The notes under the pieces were generated by a model. It made no database searches. It was not told the DNA's origin and worked only from the letters and a program-made list of their open reading frames with translations. 20,975 nt of DNA from a virus, in the UHGV virus genome UHGV-0216266. One strand, given 5' to 3'. Numbering within the stretch: the stretch's first letter is position 1; each line of letters opens with the position of its first letter. This document shows, piece by piece, positions 3,044 through 20,758 of this stretch. The position numbers were made by a program, and so were the translations under genes.

Positions 3044-3389
3044 TCTCTGCTCCTGTTGATACGGAAAGGGAAACAGGCACACCGTTATTACGCCGCCCGC
3101 TCAGCACCACCACCATTGAACCGTCAAAATTGCTGTTGATGGTGATGGAATCCAGCGTCATCCGTGGCTCCCAGCGACTCAGCGCCACATACACTGCCGA
3201 CATGACCTGCAGGCGTAATGCCGGATTTTGTGGCTGGTCTATCAGTGCCGACAGCAGGGAACCATATTCACGGCGAGCAATGCGGCTACCCTGCGGCGTC
3301 AGCAGAATGTCCCGCACCGACTGGCGCAGATGGTCAATATCAGTAATGACTTTGCCGCTGGTATTGTTCATCCCGCTATAAAGCGTCAT
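3030..3389 (-). CDS. W: Baseplate wedge protein (P2 gpW / GPW-gp25 family)
   Basis: 119-aa ORF. ATG at 3387-3389 overlaps the V stop (ATGA). Size and position match P2 W. Confidence 0.75.
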   Translation of the reverse strand: MTLYSGMNNTSGKVITDIDHLRQSVRDILLTPQGSRIARREYGSLLSALIDQPQNPALRLQVMSAVYVALSRWEPRMTLDSITINSNFDGSMVVVLSGRRNNGVPVSLSVSTGAENGSD

Positions 3390-3964
3390 ACCGGGCCTCC
3401 GGTTGTATCTCCGCCTTTCAGGACGCCAGTATGCTGATGCGCATCAACCACGATCCCGTTAGAACTCATCGCTCCGCCGCCCTGAGTAACGCCACCATTG
3501 ATCACCACTTCGCTGTTAATGCGCGTGCGGTCAGCCTCCAGTACAAACTCACTGGTTTTCATGGTGATGTTGTCAGCGGCCTCAATGACCATTGATTTGA
3601 TGCCCCTGACATACCAGCGCCCGGTGGCGGGTTCATATTCAAACCAGCTACCGTCAGGATGTTCTGTCACGCAGGCGTCCGCCGACGTCGACGGTGGTGC
3701 GAACTGATTCGAATAGACAGCGGGCAGCGCAAAGGCAGTCTCCAGATTGCCGCCCAGACTCAGCAGCACCACCTGCTCACCTTCTGATGGTTTCCACCAT
3801 GTGCGGGCATTACCCGCGCGCAGCGTCAGCCAGTTAATCCAGTTAGTTTCAAGGTCGCCCGTTTTCACCCGGCAAAGCCAGTTTGTCCTGTCCACTTCGG
3901 TGACTACCCCAGTGCGGATCAGGTTGGTGATAAGGCGCATGATTTCGGTTAATTGTGCGTTCAT
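3386..3964 (-). CDS. V: Baseplate spike/hub protein (P2 gpV-like)
   Basis: 192-aa ORF, ATG at 3962-3964. First gene after a non-coding gap that follows S, as for the P2 V operon. Protein is Gly/Thr-rich at the C-terminus, typical of spike proteins. Confidence 0.75.
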   Translation of the reverse strand: MNAQLTEIMRLITNLIRTGVVTEVDRTNWLCRVKTGDLETNWINWLTLRAGNARTWWKPSEGEQVVLLSLGGNLETAFALPAVYSNQFAPPSTSADACVTEHPDGSWFEYEPATGRWYVRGIKSMVIEAADNITMKTSEFVLEADRTRINSEVVINGGVTQGGGAMSSNGIVVDAHQHTGVLKGGDTTGGPV

Positions 3965-9982: not shown

Positions 9983-11749
9983 ATGAACACCACACTGACA
10001 CCCGCAGATCTCGATCCCCGTCGGCAGGCCATGCTGCTGTACTTTCAGGGATACCGCGTAGCCCGCATTGCTGAAATGCTGGGCGAGAAAGTTGCAACCG
10101 TTCACAGCTGGAAAAAACGCGACAAGTGGGGTGACTATGGGCCGCTGGATCAGATGCAGCTCACCACCGCCGCACGCTACTGCCAGCTCATTATGAAGGA
10201 GCACAAAGAAGGGAAAGATTTCAAAGAGATTGACCTGCTGGCGCGCCAGTCTGAGCGCCACGCGCGGATCGGCAAGTTTAACAATGGCGGCAACGAATCC
10301 GACTTAAACCCTAACGTCGCCAACCGCAACAAAGGCCCACGCCGTCAGCCGGAAAAGAATGTTTTCACCGATGAGCAGATTGAGAAGCTGGAAGAAATCT
10401 TCCATTCCTCCATGTTCAACTACCAGCGCCACTGGTGGGAAGCCGGAAAAACCAACCGCATCCGCAACCTGCTGAAGTCACGCCAGATCGGCGCGACCTT
10501 TTACTTTGCCCGTGAAGCCCTGATTGACGCCCTGCTGACCGGACGTAACCAGATTTTCCTTTCCGCCAGCAAGGCACAGGCCCACGTCTTTAAGCAGTAC
10601 ATCATCGACTTCGCCAAAGAAGTGGAGGTGGAGTTGAAAGGCGATCCGATGGTGCTTCCTAACGGGGCCACGCTTTACTTCCTCGGCACCAATGCCCGCA
10701 CGGCCCAGAGTTATCACGGCAACCTGTATCTGGATGAATATTTCTGGATACCGAAATTCCAGGAGCTGCGCAAAGTGGCTTCCGGTATGGCTATTCACAA
10801 GAAATGGCGACAAACCTATTTTTCCACGCCATCCAGCCTGACACACAGTGCTTATCCGTTCTGGTCCGGTGCGCTATTCAACCGTGGGCGCAACAAAGCA
10901 GATAAGGTGGACATCGACCTGTCCCACAGCAATCTGGCCCCCGGCCTGCTGTGCGCAGATGGGCAATACCGCCAGATTGTCACCGTGGAAGATGCAGTGC
11001 GCGGCGGATGTAACCTGTTCGACCTCGATCAGTTACGCATGGAGTACAGCCCGGACGAATACCAGAACCTGCTGATGTGCGAGTTTGTGGACGATCTCGC
11101 GTCTGTGTTCCCACTCAGCGAGCTGCAGGCGTGCATGGTGGACAACTGGGAAGTCTGGACCGACTTTCATGCACTGGCACTGCGCCCATTTGGCTGGCGC
11201 GAAGTGTGGATCGGTTATGACCCGGCGAAAGGTACGCAGAACGGCGACAGTGCCGGATGCGTGGTGGTGGCACCGCCAGCCGTGCCGGGCGGCAAGTTCC
11301 GCATTCTTGAGCGTCACCAGTGGCGCGGGATGGACTTTCGCGCCCAGGCTGACGCCATCAAAAAACTGACCGAACAGTACAACGTGACCTATATCGGCAT
11401 CGACTCAACCGGCGTTGGTCACGGGGTTTATGAGAACGTGAAAGCGTTCTTTCCTGCCGTCCGGGAGTTTGTCTACAACCCCAACGTTAAAAACGCCCTG
11501 GTACTCAAGGCCTACGACATTATCAGCCACCGCCGTCTGGAGTTTGACGCCGGGCACACCGACATTGCGCAGTCATTCATGGCAATCCGTCGCGCCACCA
11601 CCGCCAGTGGCAACCGCCCGACCTATGAAGCCAGCCGCAGCGAAGAAGCCAGCCATGCCGATCTGGCCTGGGCAACGATGCACGCACTGTTTAACGAACC
11701 GCTGCAGGGCGAATCCGCCAATACCAGCAATATTGTGGAGATTTTTTGA
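9983..11749 (+). CDS. P: Terminase large (ATPase) subunit (P2 gpP-like)
   Basis: 588-aa ORF (P2 P is ~590 aa by memory), ATG at 9983-9985. Its TGA stop overlaps the Q ATG (TGATG). Confidence 0.85.
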   Translation: MNTTLTPADLDPRRQAMLLYFQGYRVARIAEMLGEKVATVHSWKKRDKWGDYGPLDQMQLTTAARYCQLIMKEHKEGKDFKEIDLLARQSERHARIGKFNNGGNESDLNPNVANRNKGPRRQPEKNVFTDEQIEKLEEIFHSSMFNYQRHWWEAGKTNRIRNLLKSRQIGATFYFAREALIDALLTGRNQIFLSASKAQAHVFKQYIIDFAKEVEVELKGDPMVLPNGATLYFLGTNARTAQSYHGNLYLDEYFWIPKFQELRKVASGMAIHKKWRQTYFSTPSSLTHSAYPFWSGALFNRGRNKADKVDIDLSHSNLAPGLLCADGQYRQIVTVEDAVRGGCNLFDLDQLRMEYSPDEYQNLLMCEFVDDLASVFPLSELQACMVDNWEVWTDFHALALRPFGWREVWIGYDPAKGTQNGDSAGCVVVAPPAVPGGKFRILERHQWRGMDFRAQADAIKKLTEQYNVTYIGIDSTGVGHGVYENVKAFFPAVREFVYNPNVKNALVLKAYDIISHRRLEFDAGHTDIAQSFMAIRRATTASGNRPTYEASRSEEASHADLAWATMHALFNEPLQGESANTSNIVEIF

Positions 11750-12783
11750 TGGGAAAGAGTAAGAAGAACCGCGCTGCGGCGACGAAACAGATCCAGCTTA
11801 AAAGTCAAACTACAGCCGAAGCATTCAGCTTCGGCGATCCCGTTCCTGTTCTGGACCGCCGAGAATTACTGGACTATGTGGAATGCGTACAGATGGACCG
11901 TTGGTATGAGCCGCCCGTCAGCTTTGACGGACTGGCGCGCACCTTCCGCGCTGCAGTGCATCACAGTTCCCCGATTGCAGTAAAGTGCAACATTCTGACC
12001 AGTACCTACATCCCTCACCCGCTGCTCAGCCAGCAGGCTTTTTCGCGTTTTGTGCAGGACTATCTGGTATTTGGCAATGCCTATCTGGAGAAACGCACGA
12101 ACCGCTTCGGTGAAGTGATCGCCCTTGAACCTGCGCTGGCAAAATACACCCGACGCGGATTAGACCTGGATACCTACTGGTTTGTGCAATACGGTATGAC
12201 AACCCAGCCGTATCAGTTCACGAAAGGCAGCATTTTTCATCTGATGGAACCGGATATTAATCAGGAGATCTACGGCCTGCCCGGTTATCTTTCTGCCATT
12301 CCGTCAGCCCTGCTCAACGAGTCCGCCACGCTGTTCCGCCGTAAGTATTACATCAACGGCAGCCATGCAGGCTTCATCATGTATATGACTGACGCCGCGC
12401 AGAACCAGGAGGATGTGAACAACCTCCGCAACGCGATGAAAAGCGCCAAAGGTCCGGGCAACTTCCGCAACCTGTTTATGTATTCGCCCAACGGTAAAAA
12501 AGACGGCATCCAGATCATCCCACTGTCTGAGGTTGCAGCAAAGGATGAATTTCTGAACATTAAGAACGTGAGCCGCGATGACATGATGGCAGCACACCGC
12601 GTACCGCCGCAGATGATGGGCATTATTCCTAACAATACCGGCGGCTTTGGTGATGTGGAAAAAGCCAGCCGCGTCTTTGTCCGTAATGAGTTAATACCGC
12701 TACAAAAAAGACTCGAAGAACTAAATGAGTGGTTGGGGGAAAAGGTTATTTCTTTTGAACCATATAAATTTGACATTGAATAA
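11749..12783 (+). CDS. Q: Portal protein (P2 gpQ-like)
   Basis: ATG at 11749-11751 (MGKSKKNRAA..., 344 aa, matching the P2 Q length by memory). The track ORF begins one codon earlier at TTG. Co-oriented with and overlapping P. Confidence 0.85.
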   Translation: MGKSKKNRAAATKQIQLKSQTTAEAFSFGDPVPVLDRRELLDYVECVQMDRWYEPPVSFDGLARTFRAAVHHSSPIAVKCNILTSTYIPHPLLSQQAFSRFVQDYLVFGNAYLEKRTNRFGEVIALEPALAKYTRRGLDLDTYWFVQYGMTTQPYQFTKGSIFHLMEPDINQEIYGLPGYLSAIPSALLNESATLFRRKYYINGSHAGFIMYMTDAAQNQEDVNNLRNAMKSAKGPGNFRNLFMYSPNGKKDGIQIIPLSEVAAKDEFLNIKNVSRDDMMAAHRVPPQMMGIIPNNTGGFGDVEKASRVFVRNELIPLQKRLEELNEWLGEKVISFEPYKFDIE

Positions 12784-12827
12784 AAGAAATAACCACCACC
12801 AGTCACACATTGGTAATGTGTGACTGG

Positions 12828-13373
12828 TTAGCGTCCCAATCTAAAGTTTAATTTTTCTCTTGGAGTCATTGCACGCCCAATAGCCCCATCTAATAAATGA
12901 CTATTTTTCTCTAAATGTTCACGCGCCCATGGCTGTAAGTTGAAAGCAAAACCGTAGATCATATCCCCAACACTGGTGGCTCTATAAGTAATCCCCTTAG
13001 CCACAAGTCCCCCCATGACCCCATCCTCAGGCCCACACATAAGTGAATTAACACCTTCGGTAATATAAGACTTTAAATATCCTTTTTCTTCTGCTGTTAG
13101 CTTCTCAAGGTAGGAAGTGCGTACCTTCTTAGCCTGCCTTTCACCAAGTAAGTCATAGAAAGAGAGATAGACTCTTGCAACTAAATAAGATACAGACAGT
13201 AAAAATGCAGGTCCAATAAAAATCCTATACTCATTACGAAAGCCATCAACAGCCACTTTTACTGCCAAAGAGTCTGGCAGAAAAAGTATAAGACCTAAAA
13301 CACATGTAATAGCCACAAGAAATGCTGCAGGTACTTTTCGAAAAAACTCTGCAACTCCAGTTATAACGTCCAT
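12828..13373 (-). CDS. Hypothetical two-TM membrane protein (accessory gene between portal gene and cos)
   Basis: 181-aa ORF in visibly AT-rich DNA (~37-40% GC on hand-counted lines, against ~55% in flanking phage genes). ATG at 13371-13373 with a GGAGG Shine-Dalgarno 10 nt upstream. Two N-terminal hydrophobic helices (AAFLVAITCVLGLILFL, IFIGPAFLLSVSYLVARVYL) and a ~110-aa soluble C-terminal domain. No family recognised. Confidence 0.6.
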   Translation of the reverse strand: MDVITGVAEFFRKVPAAFLVAITCVLGLILFLPDSLAVKVAVDGFRNEYRIFIGPAFLLSVSYLVARVYLSFYDLLGERQAKKVRTSYLEKLTAEEKGYLKSYITEGVNSLMCGPEDGVMGGLVAKGITYRATSVGDMIYGFAFNLQPWAREHLEKNSHLLDGAIGRAMTPREKLNFRLGR

Positions 13374-13462
13374 TTTGTCTATACCTCCAACAGCGCTAAA
13401 AAGTATTTTGAAATTCTACCTCATAACTATGCCAAAAGCACTGCGTCCCCCATCAGCGCGCG

Positions 13463-13481
13463 CTCGTATCCCCGCCACGCC
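13463..13481 (-). other. Candidate cos (cohesive-end) site
   Basis: The minus strand reads GGCGTGGCGGGGATACGAG. The first 13 nt match the 19-nt cohesive end I recall for phage 186 (GGCGTGGCGGGGAAAGCAT; P2 has GGCGAGGCGGGGAAAGCAC). Orientation points toward Q, as expected. Confidence 0.5.
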
Positions 13482-13526
13482 TGCCCGCTTTATGTAGTGG
13501 TTTTCATGCAGGTGCATAATCTACGC

Positions 13527-13550
13527 AAAAGCCCGCCAGTTCTGGCGGGC
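13527..13550 (-). terminator. GC-rich hairpin (GCCCGCCAG / CTGGCGGGC) with a U4 tail on the minus strand
   Basis: Perfect 9-bp inverted repeat at 13531-13550. The minus-strand transcript would end ...hairpin-UUUUGCG. No U-tract on the plus strand. Confidence 0.4.
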
Positions 13551-13823
13551 CTTAGCAAAAACGATCCTCAAACGATCATGCAATCTCATGCAGCATAGAC
13601 ATGCACAGACGAGTAAAGCGAATCGGACTTTACGCAAGGTGAACTCCTCAGCGGGCATAATCAGTATGTCGGAAGATCTCTAAAAATGAATAATTCGGTT
13701 AACAGGTATGCTTACAAAAGCATATATTTGATTAAAAATCATGTAAGGGGGAGGATCTCAAACTGAATCGCCACGGGTTTTACAAACTTCGATAGTCTCT
13801 CTAACGTTTCGGCTGAGGTCAAA

Positions 13824-14249
13824 ATGAAAAGCTTTTACGTATTAATTTTAATTCTGGTTGCAAGCTTTGTTAGCGTCCCAGTTCAGGCGGTAACAGCTAA
13901 AAACTATGAGAAAGGAACTAAAGCTCAACAGAAATCAATATCTTACCTTTCATGTGCATTCTATGGCAGTAGCACACAATTAGATCCTAGCTACACGGAG
14001 CAAGTACCTACAGCCGATATCAAGATATTACAGAAAGCAGCTTACCACGCTTACAACGATGCGCTCTCATACTTTGGCTATGAGGAACCAGATCACGAAC
14101 AACGCATAATTGATTATGCTGAATTTGTGGCGTCGCAAGAAGCTGTGTTATGGGATAAGCCGGGAATGAATGGAAAGCAGGTAACACTAATTGCTCGTTC
14201 TCTCTACAATGAGAGTAACTGTAACTTGTTACTGGACTCAATTAAGTAG
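13824..14249 (+). CDS. Hypothetical secreted/periplasmic protein (accessory gene at the old/tin-equivalent position)
   Basis: 141-aa ORF in AT-rich DNA. ATG at 13824 with a GAGG Shine-Dalgarno 5 nt upstream. N-terminal signal peptide MKSFYVLILILVASFVSVPVQA with an AXA-type cleavage motif (VQA/VT). Mature ~119 aa with two Cys. Convergent with the DinI-like operon. No family recognised. Confidence 0.6.
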   Translation: MKSFYVLILILVASFVSVPVQAVTAKNYEKGTKAQQKSISYLSCAFYGSSTQLDPSYTEQVPTADIKILQKAAYHAYNDALSYFGYEEPDHEQRIIDYAEFVASQEAVLWDKPGMNGKQVTLIARSLYNESNCNLLLDSIK

Positions 14250-14408
14250 GAAAAAGATGGTATTTTGCCCGTAGTTTCAACCTTAATCTCCAAACCTGTC
14301 GCAGAACGGGCGTTCACTCATCAAATAAACGCCACACCTAACGCCTCACTGTACTCGTTGTTCAACCTTGCTGACGCCAGAAGCAATTTCAGACGCCAGC
14401 AACGTTTC

Positions 14409-14642
14409 TTAATGCAGCCAGCTGTCGTCTTCCCACACCTTCTGCATAATTTTCATCACTTGTTTTCTTTCTTCGTCCAGTTGCAGTCCGGTCAGTTCCA
14501 CACCGTTAGAGCTACCTTTGCGGATACGAATTACCGTTTTGGGATACAGGGGGCGCAGATTGCGGTAAAGCTCGGATTCAAGGGCGTCCAGTGTAGACTG
14601 GCTAATCTTCTGCTCTTTATCGATCATTATTTCAATGCGCAT
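14409..14642 (-). CDS. DinI-family protein (resembles the DinI-like C-terminal part of the 186 Tum antirepressor)
   Basis: ATG at 14640-14642 (MRIEIMIDKEQKISQSTLDALESELYRNLRPLYPKTVIRIRKGSSNGVELTGLQLDEERKQVMKIMQKVWEDDSWLH, 77 aa) with a GAGGTG Shine-Dalgarno. Similar to E. coli DinI (MRIEVTIAK...ETWESADDWFV) as recalled from memory. Confidence 0.7.
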   Translation of the reverse strand: MRIEIMIDKEQKISQSTLDALESELYRNLRPLYPKTVIRIRKGSSNGVELTGLQLDEERKQVMKIMQKVWEDDSWLH

Positions 14643-14652
14643 AAAAGTCACC

Positions 14653-14841
14653 TCAGCTGATGACATCCATTGAGCGGTTGTATTCGTGGGTTCTGATTTT
14701 TGCCATGAGTTCATCTGTCAGTTCAGAAACCCACTGCAGGGCCAGCCCCTTCTCTTCATCACTACACTCACTAGCCGCTACAAGCTTAAGAAAAAAATCA
14801 ATGCGCTGGAGCTTCAAAGACTCCAAAAAATAGTCCTGCAT
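14653..14841 (-). CDS. Small acidic protein, first gene of the LexA-controlled operon (possible Tum N-terminal-like module)
   Basis: 62-aa ORF. ATG at 14839-14841 preceded by GGAGG. Stop 10 nt upstream of the DinI-like start. Directly downstream of the LexA-box promoter. Confidence 0.55.
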   Translation of the reverse strand: MQDYFLESLKLQRIDFFLKLVAASECSDEEKGLALQWVSELTDELMAKIRTHEYNRSMDVIS

Positions 14842-14881
14842 CTTTCCTCCTATAACACCAAAGCAATACTGTATACATAAC

Positions 14882-14925
14882 CACTGTTTATATTTACAGT
14901 ATATAATAATCTTACTGATGTAAAA
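14882..14925 (-). promoter_or_regulatory. SOS (LexA-box) promoter
   Basis: Plus 14882-14901 cactgtttatatttacagta matches the LexA consensus TACTGT(AT)4ACAGTA, with CTGT-N8-ACAG exact at 14884-14899. On the minus strand a -10 TATACT (plus 14898-14903) overlaps the box, and a -35-like TTTTAC (plus 14920-14925) sits 16 nt away. A second half-site CTGT is at 14869-14872. Confidence 0.6.
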
Positions 14926-14993
14926 CGTTTTTTTACGTTCATCGGCCTGATATGCCTGGTATTATTAAGAGCACGAATTGTTAACCCGCGTAA

Positions 14994-17408
14994 TTAATAC
15001 AGGTTCCGCCACTTATCATCTTCCTTCAGACGCTGGTTCCGATAGAAGATACGCAGGCCTGCTCCTGACGGAATACTGCCACCGCGAAGGAGTAAATCTA
15101 CCTCTTTCTCGCTGCCATCAAATCCTCTGGACTTCAGTTCATAGACGAGCTGCTGTCGTTGATGGTCTGTAATTCGCTGTTTGTAGTTTCTACGCCGTTT
15201 CGGTTTCACCAGGCGTAACCTTGCAGCCAGTTCCCGGCGCTCTTTTTTGTTCATACTGTGCAGAAAATCGTGCAACTCCTTGTCATCCATGCGGGTAATA
15301 TCCGTTCTGGTGTCCCCATCAGCTGATTTATCTTTCTCCTGTTGGTTCAAATTTTCAGCAAGGGGACAGTTATTGCCACGAGTCCAAGGGGCGCAAGCGC
15401 CCTGGTCGGCTGCCGCCTCCTGAACGTCAACGGCTTTACGAACCATTTTCCACTTCACTGCATGAGTGCAGATCTTGCCCTCTGCAATGGGTGACCAGAT
15501 GCCATAAATACGAATGCCGTGATCGCCATAGGCGGTCGGCTCTTCGTTGATTTCATAAGCGGTTCTGATGAGGTGATATTTACGGGGAACCAGTACGCCG
15601 CCCTGCTTCATGATGTAGGTGGCAAAACAACCAGCATCAGCAGCAGCCAGAATGGCATCAAGACGCGGGTTATCCAGTACCGGCGCACCTGCTTTTTTGT
15701 CACCCTGTTGCCTTGCCGCCTGACCAGCCAGCAAGCGAAGTTCACGGTAAGCCTGACGCCCCGGAATACCAAAGAAGCGGAATTGCTGAACACGATGCAG
15801 AGACGCCCAGGCATTCACGTATTCAGCGTTATCACGCAGAGATTTACCCGTTTCCTTGCTGATCTCGCCAGCCAGACCACGACCGTCAATGTTCTTACTG
15901 ATATATTTCGCGATGTAGCTTGTCGGCGTTCCTTTGCGCGGGTTAATCAACTCAGACTTAAAGCGCGGCCCAGTGTTATTGCCCAGCTCCTCGCGGTCTT
16001 CACGGATGGCAAACTTACGCAGTAATGCAGTGATGGCACGGCGGTCTTTTTTGCGCATGAAACACAACAGGTGCCAGTGAACTGTGCCATCATGATGCGG
16101 CTCAGCCACCCGCACGCCATACCAGCGCAACCCGGCTTTGTGCATCGCCTTACGAAATGCAGCAAACATGCCGACCAGATAATCGCTGCTTTGTCTTACC
16201 GTCGCGTTTGTCCAGGTCGGGTTTGGTCTGCCGTTATTTAGCGTGGAATGGAAACGCGACGGACAGGTGATAGTGTAGAAAACGGCGCAGTCACCGCGCA
16301 TTTCCGCGATAAGCTCCAGACCTTTAACACAGGCCATCATCTCATTGCGGCGATGCGCAGGGTTGCTGCTGCTGGCGTTTACCACATCCTCCATGTCCAG
16401 CGTGTCGCCGTCTTCGTTCACCAGTTCATGAGAACGGAAAAACTCCAGCGACTTACGGCGCTGCTCACGTCTATGCATCACGGCTTCATAGCTGACATAA
16501 GGAGATGCTTTTTTGCTGACCAGGCAAACAGCGCGCAACTGCTCTTCCCGCCATTCGCAACGCATCTTCCATAATTTCCGATACCACCAGTCGGCGCACA
16601 ACATACGCGCCAGCGAACCCGGAATGAGTTCATAGGGCACGGGTTTACGGCGGTTTCTTTTCCGACGGAGTTGCTCAAACGCAGGTGGGATGACATCCAG
16701 ACGCAGGGTTTCCGCTGCCACCTTTTCCCATGTCTTGCGGATTTCTTCTGGCTTAACGTCATCGGTGGCATACAAATCACCACAAGCTGCATCAAGGCAC
16801 ATACTCATATGCGCAGCTACCAGGGTGGACAGGCGTTTCACCTGATCCTGACTCATTTCAGGCAGGATCAGCAGGCCGTCCAGCCCTTCATGGCTTGCCA
16901 TAAAGCGAAAAGATGCAGATAGCTGACTGTCGCGTACATGCTCCAGTCGTTCCAGACATGGCTTAATCGTCTCACGTAAATAGCGGGAATAAGCCTTTGG
17001 CCTGCCCAGGCTGCTGAAGTATTCAATACGTTGCATCAGCGGCTTGCTGATATGGGAAGGCTGGGCGTTGACGTCCGCCAGAATGACCATGTCTGAATTA
17101 AAACGCTGCTGCTCATGCGCCAGCTTTGCCCGGCTAATGAGCTTATCCTGCTCCATTTCGCGCTGGACAGGATCACGTGATTCATTAAAGAAATAACGCT
17201 CCCAGACCTGATCACTCAGTGCCTCGCGGCGCAACTGTTCCTGCTCGTTATCGGCAGCGTACAGAGTGATCAGGTTTGAAAGCGTAGAAACCGGCGCAAC
17301 TTCCGCCGGGTCCAGATAAGGGTTAATGGCCTTTTTCGTGCTGTTCCATGAGAATGCTGCGGCAGCCTCGTTAAAGCCGCAGCAGTTGTTCATATCGGCA
17401 TGACTCAT
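14994..17408 (-). CDS. A: Replication initiation endonuclease (P2 gpA-like rolling-circle initiator)
   Basis: 804-aa ORF. ATG at 17406-17408 overlaps the Dam stop (ATGA). Contains the His-hydrophobic-His motif VHWHLL typical of HUH-type initiators. Large size and position next to the early region match P2 A / 186 A. Confidence 0.8.
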
Positions 17409-19841: not shown

Positions 19842-20063
19842 CTAATTAAGGTTTAGATTGCATTCTGAAAGCGCATCAACGGTCATTGCTGCTATGTTGA
19901 TCATCACTTTTTCGCGTTTTTTATCTTTGCGCAGACGGTGACGGATAAGGCGTCCATCAGCCAACATATCATTGATGGTATCGATGGATAGCCCTGTCAG
20001 CTCGCTATAGCGTTCAATAGTCACATGAGGCGTGGTAAGAGTGATTGAAATGTTAGGTCTCAT
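19842..20063 (-). CDS. apl: Apl/Cox-like small DNA-binding protein (excisionase and repressor of the lysogenic promoter)
   Basis: 73-aa ORF, ATG at 20061-20063. Divergent from cI and first gene of the lytic early operon. Probable HTH around [18 protein letters not shown]. Assignment is by position and size. Confidence 0.5.
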
Positions 20064-20135
20064 GATGCAACATTCCTCGTTTAATGATGATTAATCAGGA
20101 CGAATACGGATCGTTTGTATTTTGTGAACACCATA

Positions 20136-20164
20136 AACATACGATCGCACAGTGAAATCGTCAA
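20136..20164 (-). promoter_or_regulatory. Candidate early lytic promoter (pR-like) for apl-cII
   Basis: Minus strand TTGACG (plus 20159-20164), 17-nt spacer, TATGTT (plus 20136-20141), ~65 nt upstream of the apl ATG. Lies inside the cI-apl intergenic region, consistent with 186-type face-to-face promoters. Confidence 0.3.
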
Positions 20165-20188
20165 GATAAAAGTTCACTTGGAGTGACC

Positions 20189-20758
20189 ATGAATTTGGAG
20201 AAAGGCGGACGAGGCGCCATAGAGCGCATGGTAGAAGCTTATGGATTCAAGACTCGACAGGCGTTGTGCGATCATTTAGGAATCTCTAAAAGTACACTCG
20301 CCACACGCTACATGCGTGACTCATTCCCAGCAGAATGGGTAATCCAGTGCGCCCTTGAAACAGGAACCTCGCTTAATTGGCTCACAACCGGGCATGGTTC
20401 AAAGCAAACTTCAGGTAATACAAATACTATGGAAGTTGCTAAATATGTATTATCTGATGGGGCCTTGTGTGAAGACGGTTTTTATATTTTCGATAGAGAA
20501 TTTCTACCGTCGGCATTCAAGAATCTTTTTGTAATCACAGATAATAATTCTGAATTTATTTGTGATAAGGAATTTGATGATATACGTGATGGTAAATGGG
20601 TAATAAGTATTGATGGCGAAATAACGATCCGTGACATTACTCGTTTACCCGGTGGAAGAATCTTCGTCGAGGGTGGAAACAGAGCCTTCGAATGTAAGAT
20701 AGAAGACATTGAAATAATTGGTAAAATTATAAGCTTAACAGTCAAGTATGTTAAATAG
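20189..20758 (+). CDS. cI: CI-type immunity repressor (186 CI-like)
   Basis: ATG at 20189-20191 with GGAG 5 nt upstream (MNLEKGGRG...). The track ORF starts at GTG 20183. 189-191 aa against ~192 aa for 186 CI by memory. N-terminal HTH (TRQALCDHLGISKSTLATRY). Divergent from apl. Confidence 0.65.
   Translation: MNLEKGGRGAIERMVEAYGFKTRQALCDHLGISKSTLATRYMRDSFPAEWVIQCALETGTSLNWLTTGHGSKQTSGNTNTMEVAKYVLSDGALCEDGFYIFDREFLPSAFKNLFVITDNNSEFICDKEFDDIRDGKWVISIDGEITIRDITRLPGGRIFVEGGNRAFECKIEDIEIIGKIISLTVKYVK

Follow-up and report, generated by a model that had tools for sequence, protein, structure and literature searches.

Is the AT-rich stretch around the cohesive-end site (cos) of a P2-like prophage one acquired island, and what might the two genes that it carries do for the prophage and its host? 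The question is raised by a 20,975-nucleotide stretch of the virus genome UHGV-0216266 (hereafter the window, meaning this whole stretch), which is a portion of a P2/186-like prophage. A sequence-only reading had taken the interval between portal gene Q and a DinI-like gene for a single accessory island around cos, holding two divergent genes, one encoding a 181-aa membrane protein and the other a 141-aa protein with a signal peptide. We find instead that the low-GC region consists of two modules that vary independently on either side of a conserved cos core: slot 1, between Q and cos, holds a gene of the SieB superinfection exclusion family, and slot 2, between cos and the DinI region, holds the gene of the 141-aa protein, a member of the family phrog_7437. 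Taking the anatomy of the region, the family memberships, the independence of the slots and the defence cargo in the same slots of relatives together, we consider it probable that the interval is a cos-adjacent hotspot with two moron slots, one contributing a SieB-type exclusion and the other a periplasm-acting conversion function.

The interval from the Q stop to the DinI-like gene (positions 12784-14408) is AT-rich, as the sequence-only reading had claimed, with a GC content of 0.424 compared with an average of 0.522 over the whole window and with 0.53-0.54 in the phage genes on either side (0.543 for P and Q, 0.528 for A), and 700-bp sliding windows reach the minima of the window across 12601-14350 (0.407-0.440). 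At third codon positions the GC content is 0.30 in the 181-aa gene and 0.39 in the 141-aa gene, compared with 0.60 in Q and 0.57 in A. The two open reading frames (ORFs), of 181 and 141 codons, were found as described, divergent and both intact, both are annotated by RefSeq in an E. coli segment identical to this one, and the flanking portal gene Q, DinI-like gene and replication gene A were all located. The low GC content is interrupted by the cos core (0.543), which lies between the modules of slot 1 (0.405) and slot 2 (0.409), and in blastn comparisons with sibling E. coli prophages the homology breaks on either side of this core, at 13451-13456 on the left and at 13606/14338 on the right. 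The 151-bp core is common to all siblings at 97-100% identity, whatever cargo they carry, and slot 2 is empty in one sibling (8 bp; L003) and filled by 1249 bp of different cargo in another (L002). In P2, the Q-cos interval measures 167 bp and contains a terminator and zero genes, and old and tin lie across cos from Q, at the equivalent of slot 2, where phage 186 has orf97. The interval thus belongs to the cos-to-A/Q accessory region of a P2/186-like prophage and corresponds to the old/tin position of the P2 map, both as proposed, but its two genes occupy separate slots on opposite sides of cos and not one island. The local cos was placed by eye on the genome ends of P2 and 186, with which its flanks are conserved (…AAAGCGGGCA / GGCG… / CGCGCGCTGA), and is identical to the P2 cos at 14 of 19 positions; a search with the P2 19-mer allowing up to 3 mismatches found no site in the window because 5 positions differ.

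The expectation that cargo varies at this position was borne out by the comparison across sibling prophages, in which about 20 different slot-1 fillings were counted among 34 loci in addition to the breakpoints. Six of nine representative slot-1 proteins of siblings match PADLOC defence models, namely LmuB (Lamassu), a retron RT-Toprim, PDC-S49, PtuA (Septu) accompanied by an HNH partner, ShosA (ShosTA) and PDC-M03A, and a Scandinavium-type P2-like relative carries an AIPR abortive infection (Abi) protein in slot 2. That the two genes of the window form one undescribed two-gene defence system spanning cos would fit their adjacency, their divergent transcription and their similarly low GC content. 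However, among 5426 complete genomes of E. coli, 21 carry the SieB-like gene and 101 the 141-aa gene, but only one has the 1.8-kb combination of both, and the SieB-like gene is missing from all of the roughly 30 P2-like loci in IMG/VR that contain the 141-aa gene. Each gene is found with many other partners or opposite an empty slot, and both families occur alone in unrelated contexts. Because the genes rarely co-occur and vary independently, their distribution effectively rules out a single two-gene unit, and we give it scarcely any credence.

Even less credit is due to the notion that the AT-rich stretch is decaying or non-functional acquired DNA whose ORFs are chance occurrences or pseudogenes. 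Each of the two main ORFs is uninterrupted, with conservation of at least 99% among all copies in E. coli, both families keep strongly conserved motifs across genera, and both ORFs give confident AlphaFold2 (AF2) models (predicted local distance difference test scores, pLDDT, of 86 and 76); the conservation refutes decay of the region, although a small RefSeq pseudogene across the cos region of siblings and a probably spurious 45-aa ORF at 13521-13658 on the minus strand of the window point the other way. This 45-aa ORF was rejected as a real gene, straddling as it does the boundary between the cos core and the slot-2 module; both it and the pseudogene, annotated as 'hypothetical protein, internal stop' (for example in L004/L005, ~3230-3430), probably arose as artefacts of annotating the packaging site.

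Its place between A and Q and next to cos identifies the interval as the gpA-gpQ defence hotspot known from P2-like phages. Rousset et al. (2022) inspected this cos-proximal hotspot in all E. coli genomes, counted 1,650 gene arrangements among 18,150 loci and validated several of the systems found there (PMC9122126), in agreement with the earlier statement that an anti-phage hotspot has been described here. The suggestion that its content may be undescribed did not survive, since both accessions already stand in hotspot arrangements of Table S5 of that paper, WP_021548667 as 'SieB' and WP_000834899 as 'hypothetical'. The locus, the flanking genes, the adjacency to cos and the extreme variability of cargo are the same in that survey and in the window; the survey treats gpA-gpQ as one hotspot, whereas we distinguish two slots on either side of cos, and the gene combination of the window is very rare. 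Several observations weigh against assigning a defence role to either gene. Neither accession is present in the table of tested systems (Table S2), neither protein matches anything in PADLOC (PADLOC-DB v2) at E ≤ 1, and the hotspot also holds non-defence cargo such as partition systems and a cytolethal distending toxin (PMC9122126), so that location alone does not prove a defence role. A 2026 preprint on P2 and P4 elements reports that 19% of P2 elements have no identifiable defence genes but carry unknown genes at the main locus; both proteins go unmentioned there, its supplements contain neither accession, and WP_000834899 has no main-text mention in any paper found.

The sole complete E. 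coli genome with the identical 1.8-kb combination is that of E. coli MB06234 (NZ_CM129882.1; L001, 104-2050), whose prophage is defective, with a tail-fibre pseudogene adjoining a terminase that lacks its N-terminus. The terminase of the window, unlike that of MB06234, is intact at 588 aa, and the window thus comes from a different, apparently intact relative. In E. coli DETEC-P881 (L002, 2400-3457), a pair of genes encoding proteins of 280 and 71 aa occupies slot 2 next to the same SieB-like gene. The pair, present in seven listed genomes, has no match in Pfam or PADLOC and is another uncharacterised candidate at the old/tin position; its 71-aa member (WP_000094764) appears with a different partner accession in a SieB arrangement of Table S5 of Rousset et al.

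Judged by its profile match, the 181-aa protein of slot 1 is a full-length SieB-family member. The Pfam model PF14163 (SieB) matches it with 88.4 bits (cutoff 26; E 4.5e-25), aligning residues 20-157 to positions 2-146 of the 147-position profile, and the same model gives 103.5 bits for lambda SieB and 101.4 bits for P22 SieB. The RefSeq name of the identical protein WP_021548667.1, 'superinfection exclusion B family protein', agrees with this assignment. The sequence-only reading, in which neither protein was recognisable and neither resembled a defence protein that could be named, holds for the 141-aa protein, recognised by phrog_7437 only, and fails for this one. It had correctly seen two transmembrane segments: hydrophobic windows span residues 14-32 and 51-70, in agreement with helices of the AF2 model, and these two N-terminal helices would anchor the protein in the inner membrane, with a predicted inside/outside topology. 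The C-terminal domain of the model resembles the DNA-binding winged helices of MarR, ArsR and TubR. In addition to the profile match, the protein resembles P22 and lambda SieB in size (181 versus 184-192 aa), in its N-terminal membrane region and in being encoded by a single prophage gene oriented against neighbouring lytic genes.

The protein also differs from the characterised SieB proteins in several respects. BLASTP aligns the 181-aa protein to lambda SieB at 22% identity over 143 aa with an E value of 0.006, in the twilight zone, and yields no significant alignment to P22 SieB, and the similarity is thus at profile level only. An hhalign comparison of the subfamily with the single lambda SieB sequence returns a probability of 2.6% (E 0.017); membership rests on the Pfam profile because this comparison with a single sequence is uninformative. 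The genomic settings also differ, lambda SieB being encoded in the lambdoid pL region and the 181-aa protein beside cos in a P2-family myovirus. In P22, an in-frame product from codon 25 of sieB, named Esc, protects P22 itself, and sas provides antisense control. Such an internal start is known only for P22 and lambda and may not define the wider SieB family. None is evident in the 181-aa gene, where no internal ATG precedes codon 112 and no Shine-Dalgarno sequence accompanies GTG20, TTG36 or GTG40, all of them in frame. The leader of the gene has a GGAGG (13384-13388) 9 nt upstream of the ATG and a TAGAAT hexamer resembling a −10 element at 13413-13418, a candidate promoter that a consensus promoter scan did not flag.

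The 181-aa protein is part of a tight subfamily of proteins ~180 aa long that, in contrast to P22 and lambda SieB, is distinct, highly conserved, Gammaproteobacteria-wide and mostly found outside recognisable prophages, with members 50-60% identical in Pseudomonas, Vibrio, Halomonas, Aeromonas, Methylophaga and others. Chromosomal members are solitary genes in small variable islands. In Citrobacter- and Scandinavium-type P2-like prophages, the slot next to Q likewise holds orthologues at 67-78% identity, which face other cargo across cos, including the AIPR Abi protein, and the 'phages' collection contains only distant SieB-like homologues, SPbeta yopH and one in an Akkermansia phage. In Halomonas, Vibrio and Pseudomonas loci (L013, L014 and L011), homologues 54-60% identical stand alone in small variable islands with CcdAB, an SLFN-like helicase, DUF2971, an integrase fragment, a 936-aa SMC-like protein, HipA and a Bro-N protein as neighbours, surroundings that look like defence-island contexts.

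P22 and lambda SieB, the only characterised members, act after entry and abort lytic growth, and P22 SieB stops macromolecular synthesis midway in the lytic cycle of superinfecting relatives (PMC10883804). By analogy, the prophage would express from slot 1 an SieB-family protein, anchored in the inner membrane and carrying a cytoplasmic winged-helix-like domain, that would most likely abort the lytic development of heterologous superinfecting phages. The membrane part may act as the effector and the cytoplasmic domain as a sensor or regulator; here, as for expression in the lysogen, the membrane topology and the phenotypes of both proteins, we infer rather than observe. Alternatively, the protein might not be abortive at all and might serve as a membrane-tethered winged-helix regulator, as an entry blocker of the SieA or Imm kind or in the prophage's own biology near cos, which we regard as improbable. 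The winged-helix resemblance and the start of the gene merely 90 bp from the cos cleavage site lend themselves to these roles, and the molecular mechanism of SieB is itself described as poorly understood (PMC10883804). Set against them are the post-entry, abortive action of both characterised SieB proteins, the existence of close homologues outside prophages, and the absence of the gene from most P2-like prophages, which carry bona fide defence systems in its place; because most of them lack it, the gene cannot be needed for packaging.

The 141-aa protein of slot 2 is a member of a small family. The profile phrog_7437 matches it at E 4.3e-99 over positions 1-141 of 141 and matches all 14 family members; it is the sole profile match, with none in Pfam, NCBIfam or PADLOC, and Pfam scans of all 14 members gave noise only. 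A word-indexed search with the protein returned seven clusters, all from Enterobacterales, and an exhaustive HMMER search of 1.84 billion representatives returned 17 proteins at E ≤ 0.001: 14 small family members of 94-168 aa and three multi-stretch matches in proteins of 433-1585 aa. No relative of the family was found in two scans of the GTDB species-representative genomes, no homologue of the protein in the 'phages' collection, and no match in a profile search of PDB sequences. The family alignment comprises 14 sequences (the window protein, three close homologues and ten distant members), all of which have an N-terminal signal peptide, in line with the signal peptide noticed earlier; in the window protein it reads MKSFYVLILILVASFVSVPVQA / VT (…PVQA/VT), without a lipobox. 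C44, W110, Y128, N132 and C133 are invariant and a YAEFVASQEAVLWDKPGMN motif is conserved, and by these conserved positions the family is real and under constraint. The presence of two invariant cysteines in a predicted exported protein suggests that C44 and C133 form a disulfide.

In E. coli the 141-aa gene always lies 217 bp from the cos core, adjoining the DinI region, and homologues at 77% identity occupy two further accessory positions, making three prophage contexts in all. One is found in a P2-like prophage of Hafnia alvei (L016, 4333-6640), where the slot between the tail genes S and V holds a 215-aa unknown protein, the 141-aa homologue and, beside it, the 338-aa PADLOC candidate PDC-S11, implying that cargo moves between different hotspots of P2-like phages. 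The other lies beyond the tail-fibre genes, at the distal end of a lambdoid prophage. Given that the homologues lie in such varied accessory positions, the 141-aa gene is a mobile single-gene moron. Slot 2 would then be a self-contained module made of a promoter and a gene for a Sec-exported, disulfide-bonded helical protein, most likely with a periplasm-acting lysogenic-conversion function. The action that we favour, tentatively and at less than even confidence, is a periplasm-acting exclusion in which the protein would hinder the entry of superinfecting phages by blocking DNA injection or cell-wall penetration.

Several known exclusion proteins can be compared with the 141-aa protein. T4 Sp and Imm, P22 SieA, phi80/N15 Cor and T5 Llp are small phage-encoded proteins of the membrane or periplasm that block the entry of other phages (PMC11436027, PMC10883804), and their likeness to the 141-aa protein is one of functional analogy only. 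It is weakened by the lack of any similarity in sequence or fold to known exclusion or immunity envelope proteins, these five among them, and by the finding of nothing similar among solved or viral predicted (BFVD) structures; moreover, the 141-aa protein is predicted to be soluble in the periplasm and to be neither a lipoprotein nor an integral membrane protein. With P2 old and tin and 186 orf97, it shares the slot between cos and the replication module, where these genes are prophage-expressed exclusion genes, but the window proteins have no sequence relation to them, and PADLOC, which includes Old-like ATPases, matches neither. The 141-aa protein is also predicted to be exported, unlike Old and Tin, which are located in the cytoplasm. 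A more novel possibility, though an unlikely one, is that phrog_7437 would represent a class of superinfection-exclusion protein not seen before, acting in the periplasm to stop incoming phages at cell-wall penetration or DNA injection and bearing no relation to Sp, Imm, SieA, Cor and Llp: a soluble, disulfide-stabilised, helical protein carried as a promoter-plus-gene cassette among the accessory slots of P2-like and lambdoid prophages.

The exported protein might instead serve the host and not act against phages, as a periplasmic host-fitness or lysogenic-conversion factor. Conceivable variants are immunity to an envelope-targeting toxin or lysozyme and a modulation of stress or virulence, the gene being a moron like bor, sodC or cdt. 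The distal end of lambdoid prophages after the tail-fibre genes is the classic place of conversion and virulence morons, and it is there that the 77%-identical lambdoid homologue lies; the non-defence cargo reported from the hotspot (PMC9122126) fits as well. By contrast, the E. coli gene occupies the slot equivalent to that of old and tin, and the Hafnia copy neighbours a candidate defence gene. We consider the host-fitness role a real but doubtful possibility, over which the periplasm-acting exclusion role is favoured. The coordinates of the features of the region are collected in Table 1.

Table 1. Features of the cos-proximal region and its flanks, in window coordinates.
Feature	Position	Strand	Remarks
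Terminase P	9983-11749	+	
Portal Q	11746-12783	+	
Cargo slot 1, Q stop to cos core	12784-13455		672 bp, 40.5% GC; holds SieB-like gene
Inverted repeat, perfect 14 bp, 3-nt loop	12798-12828		Between converging stops of Q and SieB-like gene
SieB-family gene, 181 aa, WP_021548667.1	12828-13373	−	N-terminal helix, two membrane segments, predicted cytoplasmic winged-helix-like domain
SieB-like leader and candidate promoter	13374-13455	−	Read from sequence
Conserved cos core (packaging site)	13456-13606		151 bp, 54.3% GC
cos, 19-nt cohesive end GGCGTGGCGGGGATACGAG	13463-13481	−	Aligned by eye to P2 and 186 genome ends
GC-rich hairpin GCCCGCCAG-AA-CTGGCGGGC, then TTTT	13525-13556	−	Within cos core; terminator-like
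Cargo slot 2, cos core to DinI region	13607-14337		731 bp, 40.9% GC; holds 141-aa gene
Sigma-70-like promoter TTAACA-18-TATATT	13699-13728	+	Consensus match, 10/12; ~95 nt upstream of 141-aa gene, inside module
141-aa protein gene, phrog_7437, WP_000834899.1	13824-14249	+	Sec-type signal peptide, C44 and C133, all-helical model
DinI-like gene	14409-14714 as ORF, 14409-14642 in RefSeq	−	
62-aa gene	14653-14841	−	
Replication gene A	14994-17408	−	

Outside the two cargo genes, the arms of the inverted repeat between Q and the SieB-like gene are 100% complementary and terminator-like on the minus strand, and the repeat is likely a bidirectional terminator. A scan of 12600-15000 against Rfam found zero RNA families. 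Just upstream of the 62-aa and DinI-like genes, within the region 14866-14902, the minus strand carries a perfect LexA-box core, CTGT-N8-ACAG (TACTGTAAATATAAACAGTG, ~14884-14899), set in an 18-nt imperfect palindrome, which suggests that the two genes form an SOS-induced operon resembling p95-tum of phage 186; the DinI-like ORF matches the Tum-type profile phrog_189 only at positions 64-148, the C-terminal DinI part. The only other stretch of comparably low GC content (19951-20650, 0.413) lies at the far end of the window, includes sequence of a 191-aa ORF at 20183-20758 on the plus strand and is presumably the immunity or repressor region.

The identity of the hotspot adds little in itself, having been textbook-level since 2022, and the SieB-like gene is already correctly named in RefSeq. 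What is useful is that the gpA-gpQ hotspot resolves into two slots that exchange cargo independently around a minimal 151-bp cos core, so genes lying across cos from each other should not be merged into one "system" in hotspot surveys. The 141-aa protein is a compact orphan, encoded at the old/tin position by about 2% of the complete genomes of E. coli. The conserved SieB subfamily, with its predicted winged-helix domain, is widespread in Gammaproteobacteria and absent from PADLOC, making it a candidate for defence catalogues, and if SieB proteins were membrane-anchored winged-helix sensors, this would provide the first structural handle on a 50-year-old exclusion system.

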